Positions 3,558 through 49,466 of a stretch of 60,247 bases of DNA are shown here, in pieces. The notes under the pieces are model-generated. The model saw nothing but the letters and a program-made list of their open reading frames with translations. It made no database searches and had not been told where the DNA came from. Made by a program: the position numbers and the translations under genes. Every line of letters begins with the position of its first letter. The first letter of the stretch is position 1. This DNA comes from a virus (Duplodnaviria; Caudoviricetes), in the IMG/VR virus record IMGVR_UViG_3300028392_000069, positions 1-60,247 of that record; one strand, written 5' to 3'.

Positions 3558-3559
3558 AT

Positions 3560-6136: not shown

Positions 6137-6139
6137 ACG

Positions 6140-7074: not shown

Positions 7075-7075
7075 A

Positions 7076-7321
7076 TCAGTCCTTTTCGCATTCGGGTTTG
7101 TCTTCTTTGTGTGCGCCTACTTTGAGGCCCGATAACCAACCGATTAAGCCTCCGATGATGGTCTGAAAAGCAGGGCCAATGATCTCAAATATCTTGGTGT
7201 TGTCTACTTCCTTGACAAACAAACCGTGGATCAGCGCCCATATCAAAGATAGCACAACGGCACACAGAGTAGCGGTGACCATGTAGGTTACGACATTTAC
7301 TAGCTTGTCTTTACTGTTCAT
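7076..7321 (-). CDS. Small two-TM membrane protein (lysis module)
   Basis: Two hydrophobic segments and a charged C-terminus; tiles with neighbouring genes. Confidence 0.65.
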   Translation of the reverse strand: MNSKDKLVNVVTYMVTATLCAVVLSLIWALIHGLFVKEVDNTKIFEIIGPAFQTIIGGLIGWLSGLKVGAHKEDKPECEKD

Positions 7322-7653: not shown

Positions 7654-7679
7654 CTAGTTTTTTACTAACTTACTCTTAG

Positions 7680-7889
7680 TTATGCGTTTACTGCGGTTTC
7701 AAAAGGCGTTAAATCCTCAGTTGTCCAATAATCTTGGGCTAACATAAATTGCAAATGTTTCTTGTTTCTCTGCATTGTGTCTTGGTCATTCTCGGTCATA
7801 GTCTCTTGTGCCGCCAGTGCGGTAATTAAATTGACGGAATCCATAGCAGCAGAGTAGTGCCTAGCAATTTGTTCTGGGGTATTTTTCAT
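7680..7889 (-). CDS. Small hypothetical protein following the tail fibre (possible fibre chaperone)
   Basis: 69-aa ORF immediately downstream of the tail fibre; function inferred from position only. Confidence 0.6.
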   Translation of the reverse strand: MKNTPEQIARHYSAAMDSVNLITALAAQETMTENDQDTMQRNKKHLQFMLAQDYWTTEDLTPFETAVNA

Positions 7890-7909
7890 TTTTAAATTTT
7901 CTTAAATGT

Positions 7910-28018: not shown

Positions 28019-28254
28019 CGGGTACTTTGGGACTCCTACCGGGGGGTGTTTCTATATAGAGGGGGGTGGGTCTAACAGACTGGGAATATTTTGTACCACA
28101 TGAGTTTAAAAATTTTGCAAAAATTTAAAAATGAGTATCGCTTGAGTGGATTAGTGTGTAGGGAAATTCTGGGACTCCTTCTTGGGTACTTGGTCGGTGG
28201 GGGGATAGTGGGCCTGTTGCTTTGAAAACATTTTATTTATTGTTCACTGAGGGT

Positions 28255-28284
28255 TTGACTTTGCATGGCATTTTGTGGTACAAT
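28255..28284 (+). promoter_or_regulatory. Early sigma70 promoter P1
   Basis: TTGACT-N18-TACAAT with TG extended -10 and AT-rich upstream tract. Confidence 0.7.
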
Positions 28285-28361
28285 CCACCTATGTAAATCA
28301 AATCCGGTTTACATACCTAACAATGTTAGGTTTATTAGAGTAGTTAGAAAAGGAAAACATC

Positions 28362-28874
28362 ATGTTAGATATTACAGTAACACAAGCCCCTGAAGTCAAC
28401 GTCATTGACGTTTTACGTAACGCAGTTGCTGAAGCAACGGTTCGCGCCTATGGTGCAGAACGTGAATACGCCATTGCATTGTGCGGGACTTTGCCCTTTG
28501 CTTGGTATTCAGTGGAGCATAGCGATAAGTCTGAAGGGGCAAAGCCTACGCATGCTGAGAAAAAAGCATTGTTCAAAGTGCTCAATGCCGCAAAGCATAC
28601 TAACCCGTCGACGGTGTGGGCGCGTGTACGCAAATATGCTCAGGAACATGTAGAGGGTAAGCCCGAAAATGCTGAGGGCGAAAGTGCTGAGGGCGAATCA
28701 GTGGGCGCAAAAGCTCGACGTTCGCTAACCCTGCGTTTTGTTGAAGAGCTTACTACTCTCTACAAAGCTGGAAAGAATGCTGAATCGATGTCCGCAAAGG
28801 AAACCGATGCGCATACGTACATAGCAAGCGCATTGAAAGCTCTAGGGATTGACTTAGCCACAATCCAATCGTAA
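28362..28874 (+). CDS. Early hypothetical protein (170 aa)
   Basis: RBS AAGGA; first gene after P1. Confidence 0.85.
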   Translation: MLDITVTQAPEVNVIDVLRNAVAEATVRAYGAEREYAIALCGTLPFAWYSVEHSDKSEGAKPTHAEKKALFKVLNAAKHTNPSTVWARVRKYAQEHVEGKPENAEGESAEGESVGAKARRSLTLRFVEELTTLYKAGKNAESMSAKETDAHTYIASALKALGIDLATIQS

Positions 28875-28936
28875 ACCCGAGGGTAAGAGGGGAAACCCTC
28901 TTACCTAACATTGTTAGGTAAACTGGAGAAAATTTT

Positions 28937-29167
28937 ATGGCATACGCAAATGAATATCTTACCGATGAAGAGCATGAGCAAAATCTAGTCACGCAACAAA
29001 ACATGAGGGCAATAAATCAGGGTATAAATGTACATGTTCAATTGTGGCTTGACGGTTTAATTACTGATAGGGAAATAACCGCATACTTTGCCAAACTGAA
29101 CGAACGGTTTTCCCGCGCCGATGTGCGCGGTTTGATTGACCCGAATACGGGCCTGCGTTACGAATAA
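28937..29167 (+). CDS. Early hypothetical protein (76 aa)
   Basis: RBS GGAG; followed by a terminator. Confidence 0.8.
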   Translation: MAYANEYLTDEEHEQNLVTQQNMRAINQGINVHVQLWLDGLITDREITAYFAKLNERFSRADVRGLIDPNTGLRYE

Positions 29168-29185
29168 CCCCCCCTCTCCAAACCC

Positions 29186-29210
29186 AAGCCCGCGCAATGC
29201 GGGCTTTTTT
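29186..29210 (+). terminator. Intrinsic terminator
   Basis: AAGCCCGC-GCAAT-GCGGGCTT followed by further T residues. Confidence 0.85.
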
Positions 29211-29875
29211 ACGTCTGGGCTTTTCTCCCTCCCCCTATTTGAATTGACCTAACAATGTTAGGTCGGATGGAATGCCAGTTCTCGGGTCGGCGGTAGCGTA
29301 CCACGTTGTTACAATGTTACAATGTTACGCGAATTTTTAAGTCCCACTGCCAGCATGGTTATTCGGCGAACCTAACAATGTTATGCTTTTTTCGATGTTA
29401 CGGGCTAATGTTACGTGCGTAACATTGCTAAGTCCTTGATTTATAAGGATATTTTCGTAAAGTTACAATGTTACGCGATTTTCGGAATGGGTGTCGGTTG
29501 GCGCAAGAAAATTTAGAGGCACGATAATAACGGCAAATGCAATTCATACCACAAAAACTAATTTTTCCCCGCCTCATACCCTCTCTTAAAAACACATAAC
29601 ATTATAACATTATATATATCTACTACTTTTTCTTTTATGAATCAACAACTTGCGAACCTTTTTCCGTTATGTTTGCCTTTTTATAACCATAACTTTGCTG
29701 TAACATTGCCCCATTTCCATAACGCACAAGTCTACCCATTTCATAACACCCCAAACCCAACCCGCAAAAACCCCCCCGAAACGTAACAAAGCACAGAAAT
29801 GTAACAAAGCACCGAAATGTAACAAAGCACCGAAATGTAACAAACTAAAGCACTCTAATCTTTTGTCGAGCCTAA
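29211..29875. other. Origin-like non-coding region with TGTTAC/GTAACA repeats, two IHF consensus sites and an AT-rich core
   Basis: About 660 bp with no credible CDS; WATCAANNNNTTR matches at 29429-29441 (-) and 29640-29652 (+); AT-rich 29586-29640. Confidence 0.55.
29778..29849 (+). repeat. 18-bp tandem repeat x4 (iteron-like)
   Basis: GAAAYGTAACAAAGCACM units at 29778, 29796 and 29814, and a degenerate unit at 29832. Confidence 0.9.
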
Positions 29876-29886
29876 GACTAAAGGAC

Positions 29887-29915
29887 TTGACATTGCCATA
29901 ACATTGTGGTATAAT
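29887..29915 (+). promoter_or_regulatory. Early sigma70 promoter P2 (perfect consensus)
   Basis: TTGACA-N17-TATAAT with TG extended -10. Confidence 0.9.
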
Positions 29916-30025
29916 ATACGCTGGCACGGAGAAATATAACCCGTAGTCAAACGAGCCCAAGTGCGCCAAAGTGCGCCCAAGCAAAACCCACCTAACAATG
30001 TTAGGTACTTTCAGAAAGGTTAGAT

Positions 30026-30274
30026 ATGTTAGATGTAGATAAAGACACAAGTAGTCAATGGTGCGAGTGCGCTAGATGTGGGGATGAATTCCCCGTGCGC
30101 CGCAAGCAACTAGGGTATAAGTTATGCCTATGGTGTGGCGAAGAAGCCGCAACTGTAGAACGCAGTTCGTGGTGCATTGTGCAGGAATACTCAAAGGGCG
30201 CATACCAATTGGTTACACCTGCCGCCGCACACATAACCCTCAAGCAAACCAACCCCAAGGAGCAACGCGCATGA
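30026..30274 (+). CDS. C4 zinc-finger protein (DksA/TraR-like finger)
   Basis: CARCGDEFPVRR...LCLWC spacing resembles the TraR/DksA C4 finger. Confidence 0.6.
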   Translation: MLDVDKDTSSQWCECARCGDEFPVRRKQLGYKLCLWCGEEAATVERSSWCIVQEYSKGAYQLVTPAAAHITLKQTNPKEQRA

Positions 30275-30444
30275 ACACAAAGTCCGAAACCATTTCCCAC
30301 ATCGGGATTGCAGTCCTTACCACAATCATTCTTTTCACTTGCTGGGACAGAGAGGGCTGGCTATTCGAAGCTGGCCTAGTATGGGCTGGAGCCAACATCG
30401 GGTTTTTAGTGACAGTCTATTTGAACCAAGGAGAAGATGAATGA
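30271..30444 (+). CDS. Small membrane protein (57 aa)
   Basis: RBS AAGGAG, ATG at 30271; two hydrophobic segments; ends GEDE. Confidence 0.75.
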   Translation: MNTKSETISHIGIAVLTTIILFTCWDREGWLFEAGLVWAGANIGFLVTVYLNQGEDE

Positions 30445-30623
30445 AAGTCAAAGAGTTAATCCATTACCTGCAAGGGCGCAACCCTGAGCATGACGTAGTT
30501 ATATCTGGACATGAGCTAGGGTTAGGCAGCGACCTTATCCTTGTAGGTGCATACCAGTATGACAACACCACCTACGTTTGCCTGATAACAGGTGATAGTT
30601 TTGAAGAAGGAGAAGATGAATGA
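30441..30623 (+). CDS. Small hypothetical protein (60 aa)
   Basis: MKVKELI...; ATGA overlaps at both ends; ends GEDE. Confidence 0.8.
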   Translation: MKVKELIHYLQGRNPEHDVVISGHELGLGSDLILVGAYQYDNTTYVCLITGDSFEEGEDE

Positions 30624-30850
30624 ACACCTACTGGAACTATCGCATCGTCAATGCCAAATCAGAAAACGGCGGCGAGGATTGGTACTGCCTGAAAGAAGTC
30701 GTGTACCAAGACGGTAAGCCTTGGGGCTATAACGACCCCTGCATTGGGTCTGATGACATGGACTCTATGCGTGACGTATGGCGCTTGATGAGCCTAGCAA
30801 TGGAAGTGCCGCCGATGCAAGAATCAGACTTTGTAGGAGAAGATGAATGA
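30620..30850 (+). CDS. Small hypothetical protein (76 aa)
   Basis: WNYRIV...LKEVVY; ends GEDE. Confidence 0.8.
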   Translation: MNTYWNYRIVNAKSENGGEDWYCLKEVVYQDGKPWGYNDPCIGSDDMDSMRDVWRLMSLAMEVPPMQESDFVGEDE

Positions 30851-31062
30851 CTATGGTAACTAACACATTCGTAACCGAAGGCAATAAGTACCACGTCGAG
30901 GTATTCGGCAATGGCTGGGCATATTGCGTGACGTGCCAACGCACAGGCGATAACTTTTTTGTCCAAGACCATGATGCCGAGCAACTGCAAAACGAGACTG
31001 ATAACTTTGAGTGCATCGGTGCGATTGATATGTATATGGAAGCATTGGGAGGTTCAACATGA
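30847..31062 (+). CDS. Small hypothetical protein (71 aa)
   Basis: RBS supplied by the junction repeat; ATGA overlaps. Confidence 0.75.
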   Translation: MTMVTNTFVTEGNKYHVEVFGNGWAYCVTCQRTGDNFFVQDHDAEQLQNETDNFECIGAIDMYMEALGGST

Positions 31063-31262
31063 ATACAGAATTATTGGTAGAGCCACGCGACAAGTACGGG
31101 GAGACCCGTATCTACCCCAAGTGCGACAAGTCCAAACTGTTCTGTCAGATGCTCAATCAAAAGACGCTGACCCCACGGGACATCCACAACATCATCCGGC
31201 TTGGATTCACCATCAAAGCAGAACACCCGCCGATTACATTCGGCACAACTCAAGGAGCCTAA
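31059..31262 (+). CDS. Small hypothetical protein (67 aa)
   Basis: YGETRIYP.C....F......KTLT.....I..LGF pattern; RBS GGAGG. Confidence 0.8.
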   Translation: MNTELLVEPRDKYGETRIYPKCDKSKLFCQMLNQKTLTPRDIHNIIRLGFTIKAEHPPITFGTTQGA

Positions 31263-31264
31263 CA

Positions 31265-31438
31265 ATGTTAGCTAGATACTGCGTAACAGGATGGAGCCCA
31301 CGCTTTGGGGTGTGGGAGACAGAGATGATTGAGGCTAAGAATATGGAGGCGGCGAAGGTGCGCTACTCCATGAAGTTCTCAAGCAACAAGCGAGTCAAGG
31401 CGTACTTACTACGCACGAATGCAGAGATGATGGAATAA
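31265..31438 (+). CDS. Small hypothetical protein (57 aa)
   Basis: RBS AAGGAG; the ATG lies inside a palindrome copy; C-terminal part of track ORF 30959..31438. Confidence 0.7.
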   Translation: MLARYCVTGWSPRFGVWETEMIEAKNMEAAKVRYSMKFSSNKRVKAYLLRTNAEMME

Positions 31439-31472
31439 ACAAACGTAACAAACTAAACGAAAGAAGGGCAAC

Positions 31473-32531
31473 ATGGCTTTTAATTCAACAACCCGACTGC
31501 CTTACATACGTTCGTATGCCACGGCGAAAGCAATATACGAGAAGGTCGCGCCGATTCGGGGCGACGAGAACAATCGGCGACCACTAGCCAAGCGAAGCGA
31601 CAAGCACATGCACATAAGCAAGGTGCAAAAGGACGCCGACGAGGTTTATGTCTGCCACTGCTACGACAAGCCGATGGTGACGTACTACCCCGACGACACC
31701 GTGGAAATCCATGATGCACCGCACAGTACAGCGTACACCCGAGAATTCTACGGACAGTTGTTAAGTGGTATGCACGTATACGTAATTAATAGTAAGACTG
31801 TAATGCAACTAAAGGACAGCAAGGATAAGTACGTAATAGCCAAGGGCAACACAATCCGACTGAAGCACGACTACATTAAAAATACTTGGGTGGTGGTGCA
31901 AGCCGAGGGCGCACTTGAGTGGACGCTGAACAAGGCCAAGGCTAACATTGTTAGGCGACCATACGCTGAGTTCTTGGGCTACTACAAGGGGATGACATCG
32001 CTACTCAATGAAGCCGTGGACTTTGATGTGAAGTATGCCCGACGCTACAGCAGACCAGATGCCGACACCCCGTTCATTGCGAAGCACGAGGTTGTACTGC
32101 CTATGCCTACGCTAGTATCCATGTTTGGTGTGAACACAACAACATATTTCGGAGGTGAAACCCTGAACACCACGGAGATAGACAAGGCGAGCAACACATG
32201 GGTTCCGCACTGGGGTGATAAGGATAAATGTGCAGAGTTAATCGGTAAGACCAAGGCCAAGCAACAGGAGGTATTGGCGCTGATGCGTAGTGACCAGCCC
32301 GAAGATACCAAGGGCGACAACTTCTACAAGGCGGCGCTGATGATGCTGATGCAGGGCATGTCGTATGTGAGTGTTAAGAAAGATACAGTCAAGATAGCGA
32401 CATCGACTGCGCGAAAGAAAGCCGACGAGTTCATACTGAGGATGCACAAGGGCGAGGTGCTGGAGCAAAAGCGTATGCCGATGGGCAAGGTGTCAAGCAC
32501 CAACTACCACACATGGTTTGAGTACATATAA
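31473..32531 (+). CDS. Early hypothetical protein (352 aa)
   Basis: Long ORF with purine-rich upstream sequence; no family recognised. Confidence 0.85.
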   Translation: MAFNSTTRLPYIRSYATAKAIYEKVAPIRGDENNRRPLAKRSDKHMHISKVQKDADEVYVCHCYDKPMVTYYPDDTVEIHDAPHSTAYTREFYGQLLSGMHVYVINSKTVMQLKDSKDKYVIAKGNTIRLKHDYIKNTWVVVQAEGALEWTLNKAKANIVRRPYAEFLGYYKGMTSLLNEAVDFDVKYARRYSRPDADTPFIAKHEVVLPMPTLVSMFGVNTTTYFGGETLNTTEIDKASNTWVPHWGDKDKCAELIGKTKAKQQEVLALMRSDQPEDTKGDNFYKAALMMLMQGMSYVSVKKDTVKIATSTARKKADEFILRMHKGEVLEQKRMPMGKVSSTNYHTWFEYI

Positions 32532-32576
32532 GCAGGAAGGGTTGGGAATATTTAGTCTTACACATGACTAAAGTAC

Positions 32577-32605
32577 TTGACTTAGGTATAACATTGTGGT
32601 ATACT
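32577..32605 (+). promoter_or_regulatory. Early sigma70 promoter P3
   Basis: TTGACT-N17-TATACT with TG extended -10; the 46-bp block is 40/46 identical to that of P2. Confidence 0.85.
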
Positions 32606-32708
32606 ATACGCACAGTAAGAGATAACAATGAGTGAGCAGGGGGGTTTCAGTCCTAACCTAACAATGTTAGGTTGGGGTTCATTAGTGGTTAGTTAGAAGG
32701 AGTTAGAT

Positions 32709-33773
32709 ATGTCAGAAGTTAATTTTGGTAAGACCGTAACGCTAAAGCAAGCGGTCAATTTGATTTGCACCAACCCCGAGATTCGGTTCATGCTACGGGG
32801 CGAGCCGGGTATTGGTAAGAGTTCGATGCTTGAAGCTATCGCCGAGCGTCTTGGTTATGACTATGCGTATATTGACGTACCCAATATGGATTTGGGTGAC
32901 GTTGCAATGCCTGTCATCGACCACGAGACACGTACCACGAAGTATTACCCCAATGCTCGGTTCAAGGTGCATCTAGGCAAGCCGGTGGTGATGATGTTCG
33001 ACGAGTTCAGTAAGGGCGCAGACCCAGTGAAGAACATGCTCCATCCATGCTTGGAGAAAGCCAACCCACGACTAGGCGACATCAGCCTGAACAACAGTAA
33101 CGTGGTTTTTCTTACGGGCAATTTGGCTACGGACGGAGTGGGAGACGTGCTCAAGGCGCATACCCGCAATCGTATCGTTGAGATAACTGTGGCAAAGCCG
33201 AGCGCCGAGGAGTGGATTGAGTGGGCTATCAACAAGGGACTGGAAGCCGAGGTGATTGCTTGGGTGAATCAGTACCCCCATGCTCTAGCTTCATACATTG
33301 ACCCAGCCCAAGCGGGGAATCCATACATCTACAACCCACGCAAGTCTCAGAGTGCGTTCGTATCCCCACGTTCATTGGAGACTGCATCTAACATTGTTAG
33401 GTCAAGGAAGGACAACGATACCGATGCGGTCATAGCAGCATTGGCTGGCGCAGTAGGTGAGTCAGCGGCGAGAGACTTGCAAGCGTACATCGAGTTCTCA
33501 GACCAACTGCCGACATGGGAGGCGACCATCGTGCAACCTAAGACTACCAAGATACCCACAAGTCCGGGCGCTAACGCAATCGTGGTATTCGGTGCAATTG
33601 CGCGAATCGACAAGGCAAACATTAACCCGTTCATGGAGTATCTCGGGCGTATGGAACCTGAGTGGCAAGCGGTGTTTGCTATCAACATAGCGAAGAATCC
33701 AACCAAGCAGAACATTGCGTTCGCTAGCGGTGCGTTCAAGGATTGGTTGGCTAAGAACCAAGATTTGCTGTAA
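32709..33773 (+). CDS. AAA+ ATPase (MoxR/AAA_5-like)
   Basis: Walker A GEPGIGKS, Walker B MMFDE, TGN sensor, SPRS motif. Confidence 0.88.
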   Translation: MSEVNFGKTVTLKQAVNLICTNPEIRFMLRGEPGIGKSSMLEAIAERLGYDYAYIDVPNMDLGDVAMPVIDHETRTTKYYPNARFKVHLGKPVVMMFDEFSKGADPVKNMLHPCLEKANPRLGDISLNNSNVVFLTGNLATDGVGDVLKAHTRNRIVEITVAKPSAEEWIEWAINKGLEAEVIAWVNQYPHALASYIDPAQAGNPYIYNPRKSQSAFVSPRSLETASNIVRSRKDNDTDAVIAALAGAVGESAARDLQAYIEFSDQLPTWEATIVQPKTTKIPTSPGANAIVVFGAIARIDKANINPFMEYLGRMEPEWQAVFAINIAKNPTKQNIAFASGAFKDWLAKNQDLL

Positions 33774-33797
33774 TCAACAAACGAAAGGAACCTAACA

Positions 33798-35009
33798 ATG
33801 TTAGAAGAAAGACGAGTTCAGAAAGCAAAGGTTACATTGATGCGTAACCCTAAGTTTGCTTTGCTGTCGGGCATCCTCATGGTGGGGCGCACGTATGTGA
33901 AAGATGATTTGCCGACTGCGTGTACTAACGGACGCGATGAGTCTTACGGGCGTGAGTTCGTTAAGAAACTACGTGACCCCGAGTTGGCGTTTGTGATAGC
34001 GCACGAAGCAGGACACAAGATGTACCGCCACTTGACAACGTGGAAGAAGCTACACGACGAGAACCACGAGCTAGCTAACCAAGCGTGTGACTACGTTATT
34101 AACCTGATGCTCAGGGACTTAGACCCAACAGAGCAGGTCGTTGCTATGCCGAGGTACAAAGATGGGCCTATGCGCGGTAATCACATGGGCCTGATTGATG
34201 AGAAGTTCCGAGGTATGAATACCAAGCAGGTGTTCGACATTCTCAAGCAGGAGGAGGAAGGAGGAGACGCGGGTAAAGGTGAAGGTGGGAACGGGCATAG
34301 TTTTGACGACCACGACTGGGACGGCGCAAAAGAAATGACCGAGGAAGAGAAGAAGGACTTGGCGCGAGACATAGACCAAGCTATTCGCCAAGGTCAGATG
34401 GCACGGCAAAAGATTGCGGGTGCTGGCGCTGGTGGATTGGACAGGGAGTTGCAGGATTTGCTTGAGCCCAAGGTGGATTGGCGCGAGGTGCTACGTGAGT
34501 ATGTGAAGGCAGTATGCAGAGCCAAAGATGCATCATCGTGGCGCAGAGTCAATCGTAGGTTTCTATCTATGGGCACTTACATGCCTAGCATGATTGGTGA
34601 AAAGATGGGGCACTTGGTTATAGGCATAGATACGTCAGGTTCGATTGGTGGGCAAGAGCTAGCCGACTTTCTTTCCGAGGTGAAGGGGATTGCTGAGGAG
34701 GTTATGCCCAGTCAGGTAGACCTAATCTACTGGGACAGCGCGGTAGCTGCGCATGAGGAATACAGCGAGCAGGATGTACCTAACATTGTTAGCTCTACTA
34801 AACCACGAGGTGGTGGGGGTACAAGCCCATCATGTGTATCTGCGTACTTGAAGGAGAAGAACATCAAGCCTGAGTGCACCATCATTCTGACCGATGGGTA
34901 TGTGGGTGACGATTGGGGTAGCGAGTGGACATCCGAGGTTCTGTGGTGCATCGTAGGTGGTAACACCGAGGTCGCACCGAATGGTAAGACGATTCATATT
35001 AAGGAGTAA
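33798..35009 (+). CDS. Metallopeptidase plus VWA-like domain protein (DUF2201-like)
   Basis: TACTNG, HEAGH (HExxH), N.ACDYVIN; MIDAS DTSGS; GGGGT; LTDGY. Confidence 0.88.
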   Translation: MLEERRVQKAKVTLMRNPKFALLSGILMVGRTYVKDDLPTACTNGRDESYGREFVKKLRDPELAFVIAHEAGHKMYRHLTTWKKLHDENHELANQACDYVINLMLRDLDPTEQVVAMPRYKDGPMRGNHMGLIDEKFRGMNTKQVFDILKQEEEGGDAGKGEGGNGHSFDDHDWDGAKEMTEEEKKDLARDIDQAIRQGQMARQKIAGAGAGGLDRELQDLLEPKVDWREVLREYVKAVCRAKDASSWRRVNRRFLSMGTYMPSMIGEKMGHLVIGIDTSGSIGGQELADFLSEVKGIAEEVMPSQVDLIYWDSAVAAHEEYSEQDVPNIVSSTKPRGGGGTSPSCVSAYLKEKNIKPECTIILTDGYVGDDWGSEWTSEVLWCIVGGNTEVAPNGKTIHIKE

Positions 35010-35012
35010 AGC

Positions 35013-35357
35013 ATGGACAAAGATTGGATGACTGAAGAGTACGGAATCCCACACAAAAACGGACATGTGCGGTTCTACATGATTGGATTTAATGAAGATG
35101 TGCATGGCTATTTAGGGTGGTTCGACATGACCGACTGGGATAAAGGTTGGGATGAATTATGGGAGACCGCAAAGCAAAGCCGAAATGGTGGTGAGGAATT
35201 CTCAATACTACGGCACGACCAATTACTTGACCTACAAAGAAACGTAATAAATGCGCTGGAAGAAGCGTTAGAGGATAAAGATGAGACCACGTTCTATTGG
35301 TGGTACAAGAAAGAAGCAAAATCTGAATCTAAAGGAGTGAACGATGAAAACCTATGA
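35013..35357 (+). CDS. Acidic, Trp-rich hypothetical protein (114 aa)
   Basis: RBS AAGGAG; tiles with neighbours. Confidence 0.75.
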   Translation: MDKDWMTEEYGIPHKNGHVRFYMIGFNEDVHGYLGWFDMTDWDKGWDELWETAKQSRNGGEEFSILRHDQLLDLQRNVINALEEALEDKDETTFYWWYKKEAKSESKGVNDENL

Positions 35358-35505
35358 AGTGGAGTTGGAATACATAGCATATATGGTTGTAACTGTAGAA
35401 GCCGAGAACGAAGACGAAGCCGAGGAGATTGCGTATAAGTCTGTTGAATCATCGAAGGCTGGGGGTAGTTGGCGTACCGAATCAGTGGAAGAAATTTTTA
35501 ATTAA
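35344..35505 (+). CDS. Small acidic protein (53 aa; below ORF track cutoff)
   Basis: RBS AAGGAG; MKTYEVELEY...VTVEAENEDEAEEIA, a DpnD/PcfM-like pattern. Confidence 0.75.
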   Translation: MKTYEVELEYIAYMVVTVEAENEDEAEEIAYKSVESSKAGGSWRTESVEEIFN

Positions 35506-35518
35506 CCGGAGAAATGAA

Positions 35519-36376
35519 ATGAGTATTAGTTCATCAGCGTTATTAGTGGAGTTGAATATCAGCGTATGGCCTGCGTCAAAGATTGACCGCGAGATTACCG
35601 ACAAGGTAAACAACGATGCGGGTGCAGTACACGGGGCGTCGCAGACTAAGAAGAACCTATTCGCAGGTACTAGTATGCGTAGCAACATCGAGAAGTTTGC
35701 GGCGAGAGTTCGGTTGTATCACAACCAATGCACCCTGCCGTGGGCTGACAAGGGTGAGCGCATGTTGCCGACTAAGTTGTTCATTGAGTACAAGCAGACA
35801 ATGGACAAGTACAACGACACATTCGACATGATGTGCGATGAGTTCTTTGTTGCGTATCCTGACCTAGTGGCAGCAGCACCTATTGCATTGAAGGGTATGT
35901 TCAAGGTAGAGGACTACCCCGACATAAATGCGGTGAAAACTAAGTTCGGATTTCGTCGAGCGGTCAAGCCACTGCCCGACGCTGGAGACTTTCGCTTAGA
36001 CATACCAGCGCAGGACTTGCAAGATATACGTGAAGAGTACGAGAAGCAGTACTCGGTCAAGTTAGCCGACGCTATGCGAGCGCCGTGGGAGAGACTGCAC
36101 ACCATGCTCAAGACCATCAGCGAGAAAGTTGCAGAGACAGGCAACGATGACGACAAACCTAAGCGGTATCACGATACGTTTATCTCCAACCCGTTGGAGC
36201 TATGTGAGTTGTTGACTAAGTTGAACGTGACTAATGACCCCAAGTTAGAGGAAGCACGTAAGCAGCTAGAGGTAACAATGTTAGGTACTAACCTTGAGGT
36301 AATTAAGGAGGACTCGGTGGCGCGTACTGTACTGAAGTCTAAGGTAGATGCAATCCTCGGTAAATTTGAATGGTAA
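35519..36376 (+). CDS. Helical protein resembling DUF3150 (start corrected to ATG 35519)
   Basis: RBS GGAG; LLVELNISVW, KKNL, TLPW..G.R.LP and DYP motifs; this family often accompanies AAA/VWA pairs. Confidence 0.65.
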   Translation: MSISSSALLVELNISVWPASKIDREITDKVNNDAGAVHGASQTKKNLFAGTSMRSNIEKFAARVRLYHNQCTLPWADKGERMLPTKLFIEYKQTMDKYNDTFDMMCDEFFVAYPDLVAAAPIALKGMFKVEDYPDINAVKTKFGFRRAVKPLPDAGDFRLDIPAQDLQDIREEYEKQYSVKLADAMRAPWERLHTMLKTISEKVAETGNDDDKPKRYHDTFISNPLELCELLTKLNVTNDPKLEEARKQLEVTMLGTNLEVIKEDSVARTVLKSKVDAILGKFEW

Positions 36377-36386
36377 GGAGAACCAA

Positions 36387-37223
36387 ATGACAGAACACAC
36401 ACGGACTTTTTCTAATCTTTTGTTTGCAGATAAATGCAGACCAACACCCGAACAGACTGTTCAGTGGAAAACAACAACACTAAGGGACGTAAGTTATTTC
36501 TTATGCGAACGTAATCCTACGTGGAATTTTATTGTCACGGAAAAAGATTGGGGTGGTGGCGATAAACTTTGTATAAAGAGAGTAGATGTAGTTAGCAAGG
36601 GAGAAATAATCGGTAAGCTTGTCGGCGCGTATAGCCGTGGCAATAATGGTGTGGAAATAATTGCAAAGAGTTCGCGCAAGTTTACGTCAGACTCTAAGAG
36701 GGCTATATCCATAGCAAAGAAATTACTACTACTCAAGACCAAGCAGGAGAGACTGCATGAATCAGTAGCTGCTGCTGAAAATTGCATATCTAATGCTGTG
36801 TATAACCATGATAGAGCAATGCAGAAAGTTAGGTACAGCCTCAACGAAGTAATTTTTAAGTACATGTTGAAGGACGCAAGAGCGTATGTCGAAGCTAACA
36901 TAAGCCACATGGATAGCAATGGTTTGCAAATGCTAGAGAAATACGATGAGCAATTAGCGCAAGTAAAAACCATTGACCGAATTAAATCATTGTTCGATGA
37001 TAAGAAAACAGCATTGCTTATTTTAGATGAGGGTAAATACCTAGTGAAGATAGGTGACGCCATTGATTTGTACAACGATACTACGCTTCCGATTTCCATG
37101 CGTGGTAATTTAGGCGTACTTAAATTGGTGGAGGTAGGTCAGATGGTTTCAGATATTGGCTGTAAGGTGAACGATGAAACCTTTGTACTAGTGATGGACG
37201 AACAACCTAACATTGTTAGCTAA
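36387..37223 (+). CDS. Early hypothetical protein (start corrected to ATG 36387)
   Basis: RBS AAGGAG; C-terminal LP..MRGNLGVLKLVE.GQ.VSDIG motif. Confidence 0.85.
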   Translation: MTEHTRTFSNLLFADKCRPTPEQTVQWKTTTLRDVSYFLCERNPTWNFIVTEKDWGGGDKLCIKRVDVVSKGEIIGKLVGAYSRGNNGVEIIAKSSRKFTSDSKRAISIAKKLLLLKTKQERLHESVAAAENCISNAVYNHDRAMQKVRYSLNEVIFKYMLKDARAYVEANISHMDSNGLQMLEKYDEQLAQVKTIDRIKSLFDDKKTALLILDEGKYLVKIGDAIDLYNDTTLPISMRGNLGVLKLVEVGQMVSDIGCKVNDETFVLVMDEQPNIVS

Positions 37224-37234
37224 GGAGAAACAAA

Positions 37235-37435
37235 ATGCGTAAAGTAAGATTTATGGAACTAATGAAGGAGCCCTTCAAGAAACCCACACCCCTTGAGATG
37301 ATTGCTGCTGAGTTATCAGACGCACACCTTGAGAAACTAAACGCTGAGACTGCTGTGGAATACGCACAGTCAATCGTGGACTACAACACTACCCGCATTG
37401 AGCGGCTCAACACACGACTGGAGGAATACAAATGA
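37235..37435 (+). CDS. Small coiled-coil protein (66 aa)
   Basis: RBS AAGGAG; tiles with neighbours. Confidence 0.8.
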   Translation: MRKVRFMELMKEPFKKPTPLEMIAAELSDAHLEKLNAETAVEYAQSIVDYNTTRIERLNTRLEEYK

Positions 37436-37662
37436 AAGATCAACCGATATCTATGGAATTACTTGCCGCCAAGCAGTACACAGACTGGATGGTAAAGACT
37501 GGAGGCTACGCCAAGGACATGACCCTGCGTGACCACTTTGCTGGGCTGGCTTTACCATTGATGCTCCAAGCAAACGTAGGTAGATGGGCCGGTAATCATT
37601 CTTTATATGCGGAGCAGGCCTATGAGTTCGCAGACGCAATGCTCAAGGAGCGTGCTAAATGA
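37432..37662 (+). CDS. Small phage protein with MTLRDHFA...ADAML motif
   Basis: Motif common in small phage early proteins; RBS GGAGG. Confidence 0.8.
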   Translation: MKDQPISMELLAAKQYTDWMVKTGGYAKDMTLRDHFAGLALPLMLQANVGRWAGNHSLYAEQAYEFADAMLKERAK

Positions 37663-37838
37663 CATTACAAGAACACGTTAAAGCACTACCGGAAGAAGAG
37701 CGGATTAAATTCTTTCGCGCAATTATGGCTGTGGTTGATGCAGGCCGCGCAGCGGGCGTTCCTGCTAAGGAGTGGGCAAAAACATACGCTGACGTGTACA
37801 GGGGAGTAAATGATTTAATCGAGGGGGGTTCCAAATGA
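37659..37838 (+). CDS. Small hypothetical protein (59 aa; below ORF track cutoff)
   Basis: RBS AAGGAG; MTLQEHVKALPEEERIKFFRAIM...EGGSK; ATGA overlaps at both ends. Confidence 0.75.
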   Translation: MTLQEHVKALPEEERIKFFRAIMAVVDAGRAAGVPAKEWAKTYADVYRGVNDLIEGGSK

Positions 37839-38053
37839 ACTGCTGTAATTCTCATGGTGAATGCACACAAGGGCGTGACTGCCCTATACGCAAGCAACGC
37901 GCCAAGGAAACCGATGATGCGTATATGAGTGGTGGCTGGGACAGGGTTGCTGACCCCTATGATGACATTACCTCGACTTTCAAAGCACTGATTGCAGTGA
38001 TAGCAGTGACCGCAGCTTTGACGCTGCTGGCTTTTTTGATTTGGGGGAAATGA
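37835..38053 (+). CDS. Small Cys-rich protein with C-terminal TM helix
   Basis: CC...CTQGRDCP followed by a hydrophobic C-terminus. Confidence 0.75.
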   Translation: MNCCNSHGECTQGRDCPIRKQRAKETDDAYMSGGWDRVADPYDDITSTFKALIAVIAVTAALTLLAFLIWGK

Positions 38054-38262
38054 TGGCCGGATTTCCAAGCAAGAAGGCAGCGGCGCAAGCCAAGCTGGAT
38101 GAAGATGACGACATCCAAGTCTATAAGCGCCCGTGGGTAAGCCTGACAGACGATCAGATAAAAGAAATCGTTGGGCCGTGGGGCGACACACCCATTAAGG
38201 GTTACACCCGCAAACTTATTGACCAAATTGAAGCCAAACTCAAGGAGAAGAACAATGTATGA
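38050..38262 (+). CDS. Small protein with WVSLTD...IEAKLKEKN module
   Basis: ATGA overlap at 38050; C-terminal module shared with neighbours. Confidence 0.75.
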   Translation: MMAGFPSKKAAAQAKLDEDDDIQVYKRPWVSLTDDQIKEIVGPWGDTPIKGYTRKLIDQIEAKLKEKNNV

Positions 38263-38479
38263 CGACAAACTGCATGAGCAAGCATCTACGTACGCCAGCA
38301 ATCGTAAAGATGCCTATCTTGAAAAGATGAAGAAAGGTGACGTTGAAAAGAAAACCCAAGACGAATTGAATTGGATTTGGGTAGCGCACTACGAAGGCTA
38401 CAAGGAAGGCTACTGGACGGCAAAAGGTGATGACCATTACACGACAGACCCTGCCAAACTCAAGGAGAAGAACACATGA
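38255..38479 (+). CDS. Small hypothetical protein ending AKLKEKNT (start ATG 38255)
   Basis: RBS AAGGAG lies inside the 22-bp junction repeat. Confidence 0.75.
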   Translation: MYDDKLHEQASTYASNRKDAYLEKMKKGDVEKKTQDELNWIWVAHYEGYKEGYWTAKGDDHYTTDPAKLKEKNT

Positions 38480-38688
38480 CTATTGCATGGTACGACCCCA
38501 CTAACCACCACGTTAGCACGGACAAGAACGACCCCCTGTTTACACCGCTTGGTCAGTTGTGGCCTTTGGTTGTGCAGCGTGAGTGGGTAAGCCTGACGGA
38601 TGGGGATGAGATTGATTGGGATGGTGGCGATTTAAAGTCACTTATTGCCTCAGTTGAAGCCAAGTTGCGAGAAAAGAACAGTGCGTAA
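38476..38688 (+). CDS. Small protein with WVSLTD...VEAKLREKN module
   Basis: RBS lies inside the junction repeat. Confidence 0.75.
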   Translation: MTIAWYDPTNHHVSTDKNDPLFTPLGQLWPLVVQREWVSLTDGDEIDWDGGDLKSLIASVEAKLREKNSA

Positions 38689-38929
38689 GTCATACCACCA
38701 CGCTGTAAGGATGGCGCTACAAAAGTATCATGATGGCCTGACCGTATCGGAATTAGCCGAGCGACTGGAGAAACCCCCCGAACCCGTTCGACGGGCGCTA
38801 ATAGCAATGTCCGATGCGTACATAGACAGATGGATTTCCGGTAGGGAACATAGAAAACAATGGGCCGCTGTATGGTGCGTAATAGTGCCGCCACAGAACT
38901 GCCCTAAACCAAAGGAAAAACCTATATGA
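38681..38929 (+). CDS. Putative HTH DNA-binding protein (start probably GTG 38681)
   Basis: GLTVSELAERLEKPPEPVRRAL helix-turn-helix pattern. Confidence 0.65.
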   Translation: MRKSYHHAVRMALQKYHDGLTVSELAERLEKPPEPVRRALIAMSDAYIDRWISGREHRKQWAAVWCVIVPPQNCPKPKEKPI

Positions 38930-39126
38930 CCGAACACGAAACCAACCTACGAGACTTAGCAGCAATGTTTGCTATGGCAGGACTATTAGTACGTAACTTC
39001 ACTGAACATGGAGAAGCTATTGTCCCCACTGCATTTAACTTAGCTAACGAATTTATGCAAGCCCGTAATCCTATTAAGGAAGAAGGCATAGCTGCGATTA
39101 AACCTAAGCGTACAAAAGGAGAGTAA
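38926..39126 (+). CDS. Small hypothetical protein (LRDLAAMFAM motif)
   Basis: RBS AAGGA; tiles with neighbours. Confidence 0.75.
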   Translation: MTEHETNLRDLAAMFAMAGLLVRNFTEHGEAIVPTAFNLANEFMQARNPIKEEGIAAIKPKRTKGE

Positions 39127-39128
39127 AC

Positions 39129-39329
39129 ATGACTACGGGGATTGAATTTTTAAAACCTGAGAAAAAACGGACAGGGCGGGGACTCGGCAAGAAACCCGCG
39201 CTGTTCAGTACGAGCTTGCGACTATCGAAAGAGGTGATGGATTATTTCAACACCAATTTTCCACGGTCAAAGCAAGCCAAAATTAGAGAAATTCTTGCCG
39301 ATTACGTTAAAAAACAAACTTTGGAGTGA
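39129..39329 (+). CDS. BrnA-like ribbon-helix-helix DNA-binding protein
   Basis: GRG..KKP...TSLRLSKEVMDYF...QAKIREIL pattern. Confidence 0.6.
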   Translation: MTTGIEFLKPEKKRTGRGLGKKPALFSTSLRLSKEVMDYFNTNFPRSKQAKIREILADYVKKQTLE

Positions 39330-39667
39330 ACATGAAAAAGCCAACTGAAACAAAAGTGCAACCAGTAAAGCGGGCGCGTGGCCGACCACGTAAAAGTCCT
39401 TTGCCGGTAGTTCAAAAATACAGCGCAAGCCAACTAAAAACTGCTTTTCTACCGGATATGGTGAACCATCCACCGCACTACAAAGTAGGCGGCATTGAGA
39501 CCATTGACTTTATTAGGGCTAAGCTAACGCCCGATGAATTCCGTGGATATCTAAAAGGCAACGTGCTCAAATACTTGACTCGCGCAGGGCACAAGGGCAA
39601 TGCAAACGAGGACATTGACAAGATGGTGTGGTATGCCAACCGACTAAAAGAAACACAACACACCTAA
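39326..39667 (+). CDS. DUF3310 (SaV-like) protein with N-terminal AT-hook
   Basis: DMVNHPPHY..GGIETIDFI...GNVLKY..R...K...EDIDK..WY; KRARGRPRK AT-hook. Confidence 0.85.
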   Translation: MNMKKPTETKVQPVKRARGRPRKSPLPVVQKYSASQLKTAFLPDMVNHPPHYKVGGIETIDFIRAKLTPDEFRGYLKGNVLKYLTRAGHKGNANEDIDKMVWYANRLKETQHT

Positions 39668-39686
39668 CATTGTTAGGGTAAACACC

Positions 39687-39709
39687 AACCCGCTTCGGCG
39701 GGTTTTTTT
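39687..39709 (+). terminator. Intrinsic terminator ending the early arm
   Basis: AACCCGC-TTCG-GCGGGTT followed by a T run. Confidence 0.9.
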
Positions 39710-43153: not shown

Positions 43154-44535
43154 ACCTATCAGAATACGAATGGCCTAGGCCACACGGTTTTACACCGTTC
43201 GATCATCAGAAGTCCACTTCAGAATTTTTAATAAACAACCGTAAAGCCTTTTGCTTCAACGAGCAGGGCACAGGTAAAACGGCATCAGTGATTTGGGCGG
43301 TTGACTACTTGATGCAAGTAAGGGTAATTAAGCGCGTATTGATTGTCTGCCCCTTGTCGGTTATGAAGGCGGCATGGCAAGAGGACTTGTTTAAGTTTGC
43401 TATACACCGCAGAGTAGCTGTAGCGCATGGTGATCGTGAGAAACGCAAGCGCATTTTGCAGAGCAATGCTGAGTTTGTCATAGTCAACTTTGATGGTGTG
43501 CAGATCATCAAGAAAGAAATCTTAGACGGTGGATTTGACCTAATCGTCGTAGACGAGGCATCAGCCTACAAGAACGCGCAGACTGACAGATGGAAAACCA
43601 TGCGCGACCTGAGCCGTAGCATCAAAGGGTTATGGATGCTGACAGGTACTCCAGCAGCGCAGTCCCCCGTAGATGCGTATGGGCTAGCTAAATTGGTGAA
43701 CCCCAAAGGAGTGCCTTTGTTTTTCGGGCAGTTCAGGGATTCGGTCATGTACAAGATCAGTGACTACCGCTGGATACCCAAAGACTCTGCTAAGACTACA
43801 GTACACACTGTGCTGCAACCAGCCATCAGGTTTGAGAAGTCCCAGTGTTTGGACTTGCCCGATGTAACTTTTGTAGAGCGCGAAGCCCCCCTCACCCCAC
43901 AGCAAGTTAAGTACTACAACGTATTAAAGAAGCAGATGCTTTTTGAGGCAGCAGGGGAAGAAATCTCTGCGGTCAACTCAGCAGTAAAAATCAACAAGCT
44001 GCTTCAGATATCTGGCGGCGCAGTGTACTCGGATAACAAAGAAGTAATAGAGTTTGACGTGTCCAACCGATTGCAAGTGGTCAAAGAGATCATTGATGAG
44101 TCGAGCCACAAGGTGCTGGTGTTTGTTCCCTTCACGCACACCATTGAACTTCTAAACAAGTACCTAGCTAAGCACCATATCACATGCGACACAATCAATG
44201 GGGCAGTGTCGGCAAACCGCCGAGCCGAGATCGTTAAAGAGTTTCAGAACAACCCTGACCCCAAAGTGCTAATCATCCAGCCGCAAGCTGCATCCCACGG
44301 GTTAACCCTAACTGCGGCTAACACTGTTATTTGGTACGCTCCCACCTCCAGCGTAGAGACCTACCTCCAAGCCAATGCGCGTATTGATAGGCCGGGGCAG
44401 CGCAACCCTATGACCGTAGTACACATAACGGGTAGTCCAGTAGAGGCCCGCTTATACAGTTTACTGCGTGGAAACATCACAAATCATAACAAAATAATTG
44501 ATCTGTACCAACAAGAAATCATGGGAGCCCCTTGA
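43150..44535 (+). CDS. SNF2-family helicase
   Basis: QGTGKT, CPLS, VVDEA, LTGTP, KLLQI, HGLTL, QANARIDRPGQ. Confidence 0.92.
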   Translation: MNLSEYEWPRPHGFTPFDHQKSTSEFLINNRKAFCFNEQGTGKTASVIWAVDYLMQVRVIKRVLIVCPLSVMKAAWQEDLFKFAIHRRVAVAHGDREKRKRILQSNAEFVIVNFDGVQIIKKEILDGGFDLIVVDEASAYKNAQTDRWKTMRDLSRSIKGLWMLTGTPAAQSPVDAYGLAKLVNPKGVPLFFGQFRDSVMYKISDYRWIPKDSAKTTVHTVLQPAIRFEKSQCLDLPDVTFVEREAPLTPQQVKYYNVLKKQMLFEAAGEEISAVNSAVKINKLLQISGGAVYSDNKEVIEFDVSNRLQVVKEIIDESSHKVLVFVPFTHTIELLNKYLAKHHITCDTINGAVSANRRAEIVKEFQNNPDPKVLIIQPQAASHGLTLTAANTVIWYAPTSSVETYLQANARIDRPGQRNPMTVVHITGSPVEARLYSLLRGNITNHNKIIDLYQQEIMGAP

Positions 44536-44559
44536 CAATGTTCAATCCTGTGATACATT
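44532..44559 (+). promoter_or_regulatory. Putative promoter
   Basis: TTGACA-N16-TACATT with TGTGA before the -10; same layout as 39721. Confidence 0.6.
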
Positions 44560-46078: not shown

Positions 46079-46318
46079 ATGAGCTACGGATATAGCCAAC
46101 GACTTGTAGAAGCCAATAAAACGGCAGACCCTAGTTCGTGGGGCGTTCTCCTTGGTTCACGTTGCATTGAGTACGGCATACCTGTCAGTTATGTAGCTGG
46201 AAAAATTGGTGTAAGTCGGACAACGGTTTACAACTGGTTTTGGGGAGCTCGCTCCCCCAGCGTGAATCATTGCCAGCGTATCGCCGTACTTTTGCCCAAG
46301 CTTAAAAAGCTCAAATAA
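46079..46318 (+). CDS. Cro/XRE-like HTH protein
   Basis: VSYVAGKIGVSRTTVYNWFWG helix-turn-helix. Confidence 0.8.
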   Translation: MSYGYSQRLVEANKTADPSSWGVLLGSRCIEYGIPVSYVAGKIGVSRTTVYNWFWGARSPSVNHCQRIAVLLPKLKKLK

Positions 46319-49399: not shown

Positions 49400-49466
49400 G
49401 TTGGTAAGCAGTTGCCGACTGTCATGTGTTCTCCTTTTACTCCCGGCTTACCACCGGGGGTTTTTT
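49400..49466 (+). ncRNA. Candidate anti-Shine-Dalgarno small RNA
   Basis: 5' hairpin GUUGGUAA-GCAG-UUGCCGAC, unpaired UGUCAUGUGUUCUCCUUUU, terminator hairpin plus U run. Confidence 0.5.
49439..49466 (+). terminator. Intrinsic terminator at the convergence of the two arms
   Basis: ACTCCCGG-CTTACCA-CCGGGGGT followed by a T run. Confidence 0.85.

Follow-up and report, generated by a model that had tools for sequence, protein, structure and literature searches.

Strictly conserved palindromes along the early arm of an uncultured freshwater phage: candidate dispersed operators for early shut-off

The window analysed here is the whole IMG/VR record IMGVR_UViG_3300028392_000069, a stretch of 60,247 bp (rated 95% complete) from a tailed virus (Duplodnaviria; Caudoviricetes). 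It carries fourteen copies of a palindrome with the core TAACAWTGTTA, all of them in the early arm, that is, in the first 11.4 kb of a 21-kb block of plus-strand genes. The palindrome is conserved in the same arm of related phages, also inside genes, and is replaced by other palindromes in other lineages. We favour, with about even confidence, the reading that these palindromes are duplex-DNA sites of a phage-encoded protein and would serve as dispersed operators for the shut-off of the early arm, the most likely binder being gp39129, a protein of 66 residues encoded near the end of that arm.

A palindrome array confined to the early arm

Counted on both strands, TAACAWTGTTA has 14 matches in the window (cores within 28318-39675, 15-mers within 28316-39677) and none in the remaining ∼49 kb. 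Over 100 dinucleotide-preserving shuffles, the count averaged 0.07 and never exceeded 1. The initial annotation had listed fourteen copies at the very same positions and no exact core elsewhere; both claims proved exact, and only a variant with a C centre, at 44319, lies outside the arm. A search for the 15-mer CCTAACAWTGTTAGG with up to two mismatches returned the same 14 sites only, compared with 0.21 expected. Six of these are perfect copies, seven have one mismatch, and one has two. The centre base on the plus strand is A in eight copies and T in six, and the sites are spaced by 0.1-2.5 kb.

The placement of the copies was also largely as first described. The first copy follows the first early promoter (P1), the last one stands just before the early terminator, and a perfect copy lies downstream of each of the three early promoters (for the distances, see Table 1); 11 of the 14 sites have no promoter of their own. 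The five in-gene copies are indeed read as ANIVR, SNIVR, PNIVS, VTMLG, and PNIVS, the last of them in the final codons of its gene. Of two claimed overlaps with start codons, the one at ATG 33798 was found, while the second could not be confirmed. The array is far denser than one operator needs and is most naturally read as acting on the early segment in its entirety.

Conservation in relatives and selection inside genes

The exact 15-mer occurs in at least 118 IMG/VR stretches, and 103 of those listed have blastn similarity to genes of the window at 63-78% identity. Here and below, counts across relatives include related sequences and do not represent independent events, and open reading frames (ORFs) called by script are mechanical calls. 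Five complete relatives, all with this motif, have 26, 15, 6, 17, and 17 cores, in each case in one contiguous arm, and a reversed control pattern has no matches in them. This answers a check proposed in the initial annotation, namely whether related phages have an arm-restricted palindrome of their own; other lineages have other palindromes (see below). In 1.16 Mb of related loci, we found 742 exact cores with an A or T centre and 33 with a C or G centre, but only 56 one-mismatch variants of the core, compared with 22 in shuffled sequence. By these counts, the site is far stricter than a usual operator.

We also collected loci by homology to gp39129 and not by the motif. The gp39129 gene was found in 480 IMG/VR stretches, and the site was present in 78 of the best 80 of these. 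The density of sites in the 80 loci was 1.14 per kb upstream of the gp39129 gene and 0.041 per kb more than 1.6 kb downstream of it.

The positions of individual sites are conserved as well: before and inside the ATPase gene, at the start of the DUF2201 gene and inside it, at the end of each of the two genes that follow, and past the DUF3310 gene. The claim that in-gene copies are kept despite the coding constraint is borne out by the orthologues. Where the ATPase peptide is SNIVR or near to it, the core is kept in 34 of 48 distinct orthologues through TCT-AAC-ATT-GTT-AGG, which includes a rare arginine codon; one ATPase clade uses other synonymous codons, and the site is absent. In gp35429, 33 of the 37 orthologues with LELTMLG retain the core, and in DUF2201 it is retained in every orthologue with xNIVS. 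Codon choice alone would be expected to produce the core in well under 1%, the orthologue counts not being phylogenetically independent. Judging by this use of codons, the in-gene copies are held by selection at synonymous positions.

Position relative to promoters and anatomy of the site

Promoters and terminators were placed by consensus scans. Across loci, there were 106 distinct matches to an extended -10 promoter on the early strand compared with 4 on the other strand. Ninety of the 106 have a site further downstream in the locus, and in 82 of these 90 the site starts 28-83 nt past the -10 element. In addition, ATAACAWTGT, with W varying, lies within the untranscribed spacer of 19 distinct early promoters. 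The distance from promoter to site ties the array to transcription, yet leaves room for a role of the leader RNA.

In that role, the palindrome would be an RNA hairpin with a stem of 6-7 bp and a loop of 3-4 nt, read by a protein for antitermination (similar to nut/boxB), mRNA stabilisation, processing, or translational control. Every site of the arm is transcribed, 82 of the 90 promoters have one in the 5′ leader, and a start codon follows many of the sites by 15-40 nt. Although ORFs cover 82% of the arms, about half of 717 sites fall outside them or at their edges. Moreover, hairpins tolerate more easily than rigid dimers both the 1-2-nt centre found among relatives and the free loops of 4-6 nt of Rhizobium phage RHph_TM27A, described below. 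However, flanking positions pair as independence predicts: among 629 distinct sites, Watson-Crick or G-U combinations were found in 536 at positions -6/+6 (531 by independence) and in 360 at -7/+7 (368 by independence). The variation is thus not compensatory, and the stem sequences themselves are invariant. Predicted RNA hairpins are weak (-6.1, -7.4, and -3.8 kcal/mol), and no T-run was found after the sites. The logo is symmetric, and the centre base, read in the direction of transcription, is A in 371 sites and T in 243, without orientation preference.

Furthermore, the half-site occurs apart from the palindrome, both in the untranscribed promoter spacers and in direct repeats. Direct repeats of TGTTA number 34 at 7 bp and 41 at 8 bp, compared with 3 in shuffles at either spacing; AATGTTATAATGTTAT and AATGTTACAATGTTAC are typical examples. 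With the 8-mer WTGTTAGG as the unit, the inverted units of the palindrome are 7 or 8 bp apart, that is, they have the same spacings as the direct repeats. The independent flanks, the symmetric logo, the weak hairpins, the direct repeats, and the sites in promoter spacers together favour a protein that reads half-sites on duplex DNA. We still give some weight to an element acting in RNA, because the sites are transcribed and lie in leaders, but consider it unlikely.

The two spacings correspond to a switch among relatives. The centre of the palindrome is either 1 or 2 nt long, with A or T in nearly all cases, while the window has 1-nt centres only. The loci fetched with gp39129 contain 347 sites with a 2-nt centre and 127 with a 1-nt centre. 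Four or more sites are present in 77 loci, of which 41 have the 1-nt centre, 34 the 2-nt centre, and 2 a mixture. Ribbon-helix-helix repressors such as MetJ, with units of 8 bp, and omega, with direct or inverted units of 7 bp, place one dimer on each unit. A rigid helix-turn-helix dimer would be less tolerant of a change between 7 and 8 bp than a ribbon-helix-helix protein.

A hairpin could also form in single-stranded or extruded DNA, as a promoter for an injected polymerase of the N4 kind, as a priming signal for the 962-residue primase-helicase, or as a nicking site. The early promoters of N4 have a 6-7-bp stem and a 3-nt loop, which the stem of 6-7 bp with a 3-nt loop in our sites would fit, and the window encodes a giant virion-type protein of 2143 residues. 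However, searches of Pfam, PHROGs, and PDB sequences matched this protein to no RNA polymerase, and no PDB sequence matched it at all. The sites are symmetric and have no orientation bias, though the early genes all point in one direction; the arm is already served by consensus sigma-70 promoters, and direct repeats of a half-site do not fit such signals. We regard this reading as most improbable.

Other lineages have other palindromes

One terminase relative, found in contigs of metagenome-assembled genomes (MAGs), has seven copies of TTCGTAC-N-GTACGAA. A scan for this pattern led to a sister lineage that shares the set of genes (identities of 36% for the ATPase, 46% for DUF2201, and 56% for the polymerase). 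There, a second class of motif, TTTCGTAC-N-GTACGAAA, stands at the same intergenic positions (e.g., 3435-10018 of one sister-lineage stretch). Its 95 distinct sites are invariant from ±1 to ±7 (14-16 positions), and the centre is any base but always 1 nt. Rhizobium phage RHph_TM27A (MN988461.1) has the same architecture with GTTACC-N4-6-GGTAAC, of which there are 26 copies in the 20-61 kb examined: 23 along the whole rightward arm and 3 in the late region (range 132-38837), with a free loop sequence. In one relative, whose ATPase is 54% identical, a further, different repeat is present in only four copies, and Pseudomonas phage Rollin (OR577172.1) has no arm-wide palindrome. Motifs that change among lineages in this way are what a phage-encoded binder would lead one to expect, and they speak against a universal host factor. 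Hence, as far as these genomes indicate, the binder is probably phage-encoded.

Two details of the isolates may be added. In the RHph_TM27A record, the primase-helicase homologue is annotated as a ‘putative integrase protein’. Rollin has a 25-bp inverted repeat, AAAAGGTAGTAACTTGCTACCTTTT, in six to seven copies over ∼600 bp across the record start (about 1-500 and 61282).

It could still be that a host regulator or nucleoid protein binds the sites, and that the motifs of the lineages differ together with their hosts. The motif is identical across phages with conserved genes only 63-78% identical in DNA. Furthermore, MtvA, a plasmid antitoxin, is reported to bind TAACATTGTTA in an electrophoretic mobility shift assay, an indication that cellular-type proteins of this specificity exist (PMC11826091). 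We treat the binding of the same 11-mer by MtvA as a coincidence and a lead. On the other hand, close relatives from the same kind of samples differ discretely in motif and in centre length, with only two mixed loci, and no MazE/AbrB-type domain was found when looked for in the window. A box for a host factor seems very unlikely to us.

Candidate binders

The initial annotation had named three candidate binders, encoded at 38681, 39129, and 46079. The last two are DNA-binding-like proteins, while for the one at 38681 we found no support. We rank gp39129 as the most likely binder and gp46079 as the second; about a quarter of the probability remains with neither of them.

The gene for gp39129 is present in all six complete genomes with this motif (the window and the five relatives) and in none of the five with the second motif, and it lies two genes before the early terminator. 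The protein has a basic arm (KKRTGRGLGKKP) followed by TSLRL and two helices. In the AlphaFold2 monomer, the helices span residues 34-43 and 48-65 with pLDDT above 90, and no strand is assigned in the extended segment preceding them. In fold comparisons, ParD-type ribbon-helix-helix antitoxins were the best matches (1.6-1.7 Å over 41-42 columns, E above 1). Six of the 26 family members match BrnA_antitoxin, with the best E of 1.3e-4, and the protein of the window scores 13.4 bits compared with the cut-off of 26.1. Other weak matches are to the antitoxin phrog_4692 (E 0.0066) and to the PDB profile 2q2k (E 0.68), which we take to be a small ribbon-helix-helix centromere binder of a plasmid. A predicted complex of two gp39129 copies reached 0.39 against the mark of 0.42.

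The second candidate, gp46079, matches HTH_3 with 26.4 bits (Pfam cut-off 23, E 4.5e-7) and was found in every lineage examined. Its operon is headed by a promoter at the end of the helicase gene (44532-44559) that starts with TTGACAWTGT. This promoter is conserved in lineages whose arm palindromes differ, as well as in one that has no arm palindrome, and may be the own operator of the helix-turn-helix protein. Its palindromic -35 element, TTGACAWTGTCAA, had been considered as a related operator; since lineages with another motif in the arm, or with no motif there, conserve it too, it was dropped as evidence.

Among other early proteins, the conserved gp36348 (36348-37223, 291 residues) has a weak winged-helix match. 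Its high-confidence model (pLDDT 85) comprises a beta domain, a long helical hairpin, and a small domain at the C terminus. This model had no structural match (TM below 0.25), and ESM Atlas gave nothing usable. The second-class phages have two divergent paralogue-like ORFs with the C-terminal motif of gp36348. For gp31473, the ESM Atlas matches were unnamed viral clusters only. A second ribbon-helix-helix-like ORF was considered as the binder of the second class; since it is present in only one of the five such genomes (and in none of the five of the present class), it is not the missing binder.

A possible mechanism of early shut-off

From the observed anatomy, conservation, and lineage-specific switching of the motif, we infer binding, the identity of the binder, repression, and its timing as follows. 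The recognised unit would be the half-site (W)TGTTA(G/C), and a palindrome of 15-17 bp would consist of two such units placed head to head at a distance of 7 or 8 bp. The sigma-70 RNA polymerase of the host would initiate at several strong early promoters, each followed by a site at about +20 to +80, with more sites between and inside the early genes; some promoters also have a partial site in the spacer. As the gene of the binder is located at the far end of the same 11-kb operon, the binder would appear after a delay. It would then fill the sites in leaders, between and inside genes, and in promoter spacers, as well as the half-site arrays, probably as one gp39129 dimer per half-site, or alternatively as the HTH_3 protein gp46079. 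Occupancy would block both initiation and elongation, the latter by roadblocks, so that the whole early arm would be switched off at once, as replication and the late programme take over. The replication module, behind a terminator and a promoter of its own, would stay free of sites.

Several points weigh against this proposal. The sites lie downstream of promoters and inside the transcript, which is where a role in RNA would also place them. The family and fold matches of gp39129 are all below curated or significance thresholds, and a weak homologue is encoded at the same position in a relative with almost no array. The gp39129 proteins of 1-nt and 2-nt phages are up to 89% identical, and no alignment column separates the two groups; hence, the sequence of gp39129 gives no sign of how the spacing would be set. 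The recognition helix of gp46079 also covaries with the motif: it is SRxT[VI]YNWF in phages that carry this motif and SRQA[VA]YMWF in those of the second class. A helix of the first type is also found in a relative without an array. Other early proteins (28362, 31473, and 36348) are lineage-specific too. No candidate binder for the second motif class turned up, and no search aimed at one was made. There is no close isolate: megablast of the arm against 50,697 phage records gave no match. Finally, a search of the window for Phage_integrase gave no match, so that a role as sites of a stoperator-like lysogenic repressor is unsupported.

In a stronger version, the early arm would be a virus-encoded silencing domain. 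The small protein, bound to 14-26 palindromes and the half-site arrays, would cooperate or form bridges along the 11 kb, folding and switching off the host-takeover module, and pairs of motif and binder would have diversified as private specificities between co-infecting relatives. We consider this version improbable, somewhat more so than an RNA element. If it were true, a differing palindrome, the 1- or 2-nt centre, and the spacer would decide whether co-infecting relatives shut each other down, which would amount to an immunity-like code in phages without a sign of lysogeny.

The initial annotation had suggested a domain-level system that silences, condenses, protects, or pulls in the early segment, in analogy with matS or parS. 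Its domain-level character is supported in that the array is arm-restricted and conserved, while we found nothing for condensation, protection, or DNA entry. A MatP/matS- or ParB/parS-like architectural system would bridge, spread along, or condense the 11-kb arm for segregation, nuclease protection, or DNA entry. The number of sites, their spacing, and their strict identity resemble centromere and macrodomain arrays, and sites are tolerated within genes. In plasmids, small ribbon-helix-helix proteins are centromere binders, and the 2q2k profile match agrees with this. However, a six-frame search of the window for ParB_N (PF02195) gave no matches at E≤1, no ParA-like partner turned up in general family scans of its proteins, and neither an integrase nor a plasmid-prophage signature was found. 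Both the close link between sites and promoters and the partial sites inside promoters point to transcription. The arm is in the middle of the record in complete relatives, but record starts are arbitrary and yield no order of entry. We find an architectural system rather improbable.

The repeats might, alternatively, be recombination linkers which, alone or as PeSL-like promoter cassettes, shuffle modules of early genes among co-infecting relatives. The early arm is the most variable part of the genome, with many small ORFs without a counterpart in the five complete relatives. In a freshwater DNA run, contigs join 29614-30006 to 32576-32871, skipping 2.8-2.9 kb, so that some strains apparently lack the genes between the duplicated promoter-plus-site modules of P2 and P3; two loose contig ends in the same run, at 28317 and 39662, coincide with sites 1 and 14. 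Of 711 endpoints of high-identity alignments between relatives, 92 were no more than 25 bp from a site, compared with roughly 46 expected. However, this enrichment is only about twofold, decreases to 33 versus 23 within 12 bp, and is confounded by sites lying between genes. Moreover, 15 bp is short for homologous exchange, linkers would leave the in-gene synonymous conservation and the strict distance from promoter to site unexplained, and a role in exchange may be a by-product of a regulatory one. We doubt that linkers are the main function, and rate them no higher than an architectural system.

Gene content and further features of the window

The minus strand up to 28018 carries structural genes, the terminase, and the portal, and the 21-kb plus-strand block comes next. 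The early arm encodes small unnamed proteins, an AAA ATPase, a DUF2201 metallopeptidase/VWA protein, two conserved proteins without a name, gp39129, and DUF3310; most early proteins stayed without a name in Pfam and PHROGs. Past the early terminator and a new promoter, there follow a VRR-NUC nuclease, DNA polymerase A, a PD-(D/E)XK nuclease, the helicase, gp46079, and the primase-helicase. The giant protein (49466-55897, minus strand) has an LPD39 polyvalent-protein domain, its C-terminal 700 residues match PHROGs named DarB-like antirestriction, and its equivalents in relatives have ∼2200-2300 residues. The coordinates of the main features are given in Table 1.

Table 1. Palindromic sites, control elements, and candidate binder genes of the window
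Feature	Position	Strand	Remarks
P1, sigma-70-like early promoter	28255..28284	+	TTGACT-18-TACAAT, TG before -10
Site 1, perfect CCTAACAATGTTAGG	28316..28330		32 nt past -10 of P1; ATG 28362 is 32 nt further on
Site 2, perfect, intergenic	28904..28918		adjoins a G+C hairpin; 19 nt ahead of ATG 28937
Terminator-like hairpin	29186-29206		
Site 3, perfect	29248..29262		42 nt past the terminator-like hairpin
Non-coding region packed with half-sites	29263..29886		tandem TGTTACAA units; everted pair AATGTTACGTGCGTAACATT; four 17-bp direct repeats of GTAACAAAGCAC
Site 4, one flank mismatch	29371..29385		within the non-coding repeat region
P2, consensus sigma-70 promoter	29887..29915	+	ATAACATTGT (partial site) in spacer
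Site 5, perfect	29991..30005		76 nt past -10 of P2; 21 nt ahead of ATG 30026
Site 6, one flank mismatch	31258..31272		overlaps stop of ORF 31059-31262
Site 7	31941..31955		in gene 31473-32531, read ANIVR
P3, sigma-70-like promoter	32577..32605	+	same spacer element as P2, ATAACATTGTGGTATA
Site 8, perfect	32657..32671		52 nt past -10 of P3; 38 nt ahead of ATPase ATG 32709
Site 9	33387..33401		in AAA ATPase gene, read SNIVR
Site 10	33791..33805		overlaps start codon 33798 of DUF2201 gene
Site 11	34779..34793		in DUF2201 gene, read PNIVS
Site 12	36271..36285		in gene 35429-36376, read VTMLG
Site 13	37206..37220		final codons of gene 36348-37223 (PNIVS-stop); 15 nt ahead of ATG 37235
gp39129, ribbon-helix-helix-like protein of 66 residues, first candidate	39129..39329	+	basic N-terminal arm
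Site 14, perfect	39663..39677		overlaps DUF3310 stop; 10 nt before early terminator; position conserved in relatives
Intrinsic-terminator-like hairpin and T-run	39687..39704	+	closes the site-bearing arm
Outlying core with C centre (TAACACTGTTA)	44319..44329		in helicase gene, outside the arm; relatives have a site at the same place
gp46079, HTH_3 (Xre-type) protein of 79 residues, second candidate	46079..46318	+	

The non-coding stretch of ∼620 bp between the terminator-like hairpin and P2 also contains an AT-rich run. Its four 17-bp repeats (about 29785-29850) have the form GTAACAAAGCAC-N-GAAAT. Relatives have a non-coding stretch at the same place with repeats of their own, and the everted pair is common to the window and one relative. 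This stretch may be a replication origin or control region. In the divergent region between the small-terminase gene and P1, there are two copies of TGGGACTCCT (28025-28044 and 28171-28190), possibly a late promoter or packaging signal. The 82-residue protein encoded at 30026-30274 has four cysteines in a zinc-ribbon-like CxC...CxxC spacing; of the small early proteins, it is the one most conserved between the two motif classes (58-64% identity).

By primase, the closest isolates are Pseudomonas phage Rollin (31.5% identity) and then four Rhizobium phages (25%). The terminase relatives occur in MAG contigs that span many phyla, being mis-binned, and are mostly free contigs of ∼60 kb; there was no clear prophage among them. 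Two contigs of ∼60 kb from single-cell Pelagibacteraceae assemblies contain terminase relatives with 51-52% identity, which hints that more distant members of the group infect SAR11. A lake metatranscriptome contained short contigs identical to parts of the arm, but their depth is low and they may be DNA, hence they are no sign of transcription or of RNA ends, and the parts of the arm that they do not cover carry no information.

Significance and comparison with known systems

If the palindromes act as proposed, they would be a dispersed-operator system outside actinophages, in an abundant uncultured group of freshwater phages. Palindromic and unusually strict sites, restricted to the early operon and maintained inside genes, would make it useful to study. 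Three related lineages with three palindromes, along with the switch between 1- and 2-nt centres, form a natural series on how a regulator and its many sites may change specificity together. As the promoters are consensus sigma-70, the key claims are testable in Escherichia coli without the own host of the phage. In metagenomic contigs of this group, the motif also offers a simple marker by which to recognise the early region and the direction in which it is transcribed. In one literature search, we found no phage array with the two 11-mers, although sites given only in supplements would escape such a search.

Several known systems have arrays of a similar layout. The matS/MatP and parS/ParB systems, organisers of cell chromosomes, have domain-restricted arrays of 13-17-bp palindromes, also within genes, and the temperate phage phiC31 has conserved inverted repeats in its early region that are bound by the phage repressor. 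The array of the window resembles all three in layout. The analogy with matS and parS does not extend beyond that, as the sequence differs from both and the window encodes no ParB_N. In each arm, stem positions 1 and 3 set CTAACAWTGTTAG apart from the matS consensus, which we take to be GTGACRNYGTCAC.

The operators of KorB (OB) exist in about a dozen copies on a 60-kb replicon, both beside promoters and far from them. In RK2, OB is described as a conserved palindrome used in global silencing by KorB, a CTP-dependent sliding clamp of the ParB family (PMC11790492). Our sites are similar in being a strictly conserved palindrome of 13-16 bp in several dispersed copies, and differ in that ParB_N is absent from the window.

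The operators of the ribbon-helix-helix proteins MetJ (metboxes), omega of pSM19035, Arc, and CopG consist of short units 7-8 bp apart, direct or inverted, with one dimer per unit. The peaks of direct repeats at 7 and 8 bp and the inverted units at the same spacings follow this pattern. Unlike these operators, which occupy few promoters, the present sites are found at 14-26 places along an operon, and the membership of gp39129 in the fold is weakly supported.

The PeSL cassettes of T4-type phages are reported to combine a sigma-70 early promoter with a stem-loop in variable early regions, with deletions and exchanges between copies (PMC4122927; PeSLs are also described in PMC2839356). The pairing of a promoter with a nearby site capable of forming a stem-loop is similar, as are the variants that skip from the P2 to the P3 module. 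Whereas the stem-loops of PeSLs are terminators and vary in sequence, the sites of the arm are invariant, have no T-run, include in-gene copies, and only in part stand beside promoters.

The stoperators of Cluster A mycobacteriophages (L5 gp71-type) are described as tens of near-identical dispersed repressor sites in transcribed DNA, many of them intergenic, which block elongation as well as the promoter; motif and repressor diverge together (PMC6550527; PMC9283540). According to PMC6550527, they are asymmetric, share one orientation, are spread over the genome, and belong to temperate phages. The sites are 13 bp long, occur in both arms, and are bound by a monomeric helix-turn-helix immunity repressor. 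The window has in common with them many short sites throughout a transcribed region beyond the promoters (14 here and 6-26 in relatives), and the location at +20 to +80 after 82 of 90 promoters, a likeness in position only, is compatible with a stop of elongation. By contrast, the sites of the window are symmetric palindromes of two units, limited to the early arm, with no integrase or sign of lysogeny and with a ribbon-helix-helix-like candidate. Among the systems compared, the array would thus work most like stoperators, although it departs from them in asymmetry and in the lysogenic repressor. Dispersed operators and roadblocks are already known from stoperators and KorB, and by this analogy the early arm fits a novel variant of such a transcription-control regulon.

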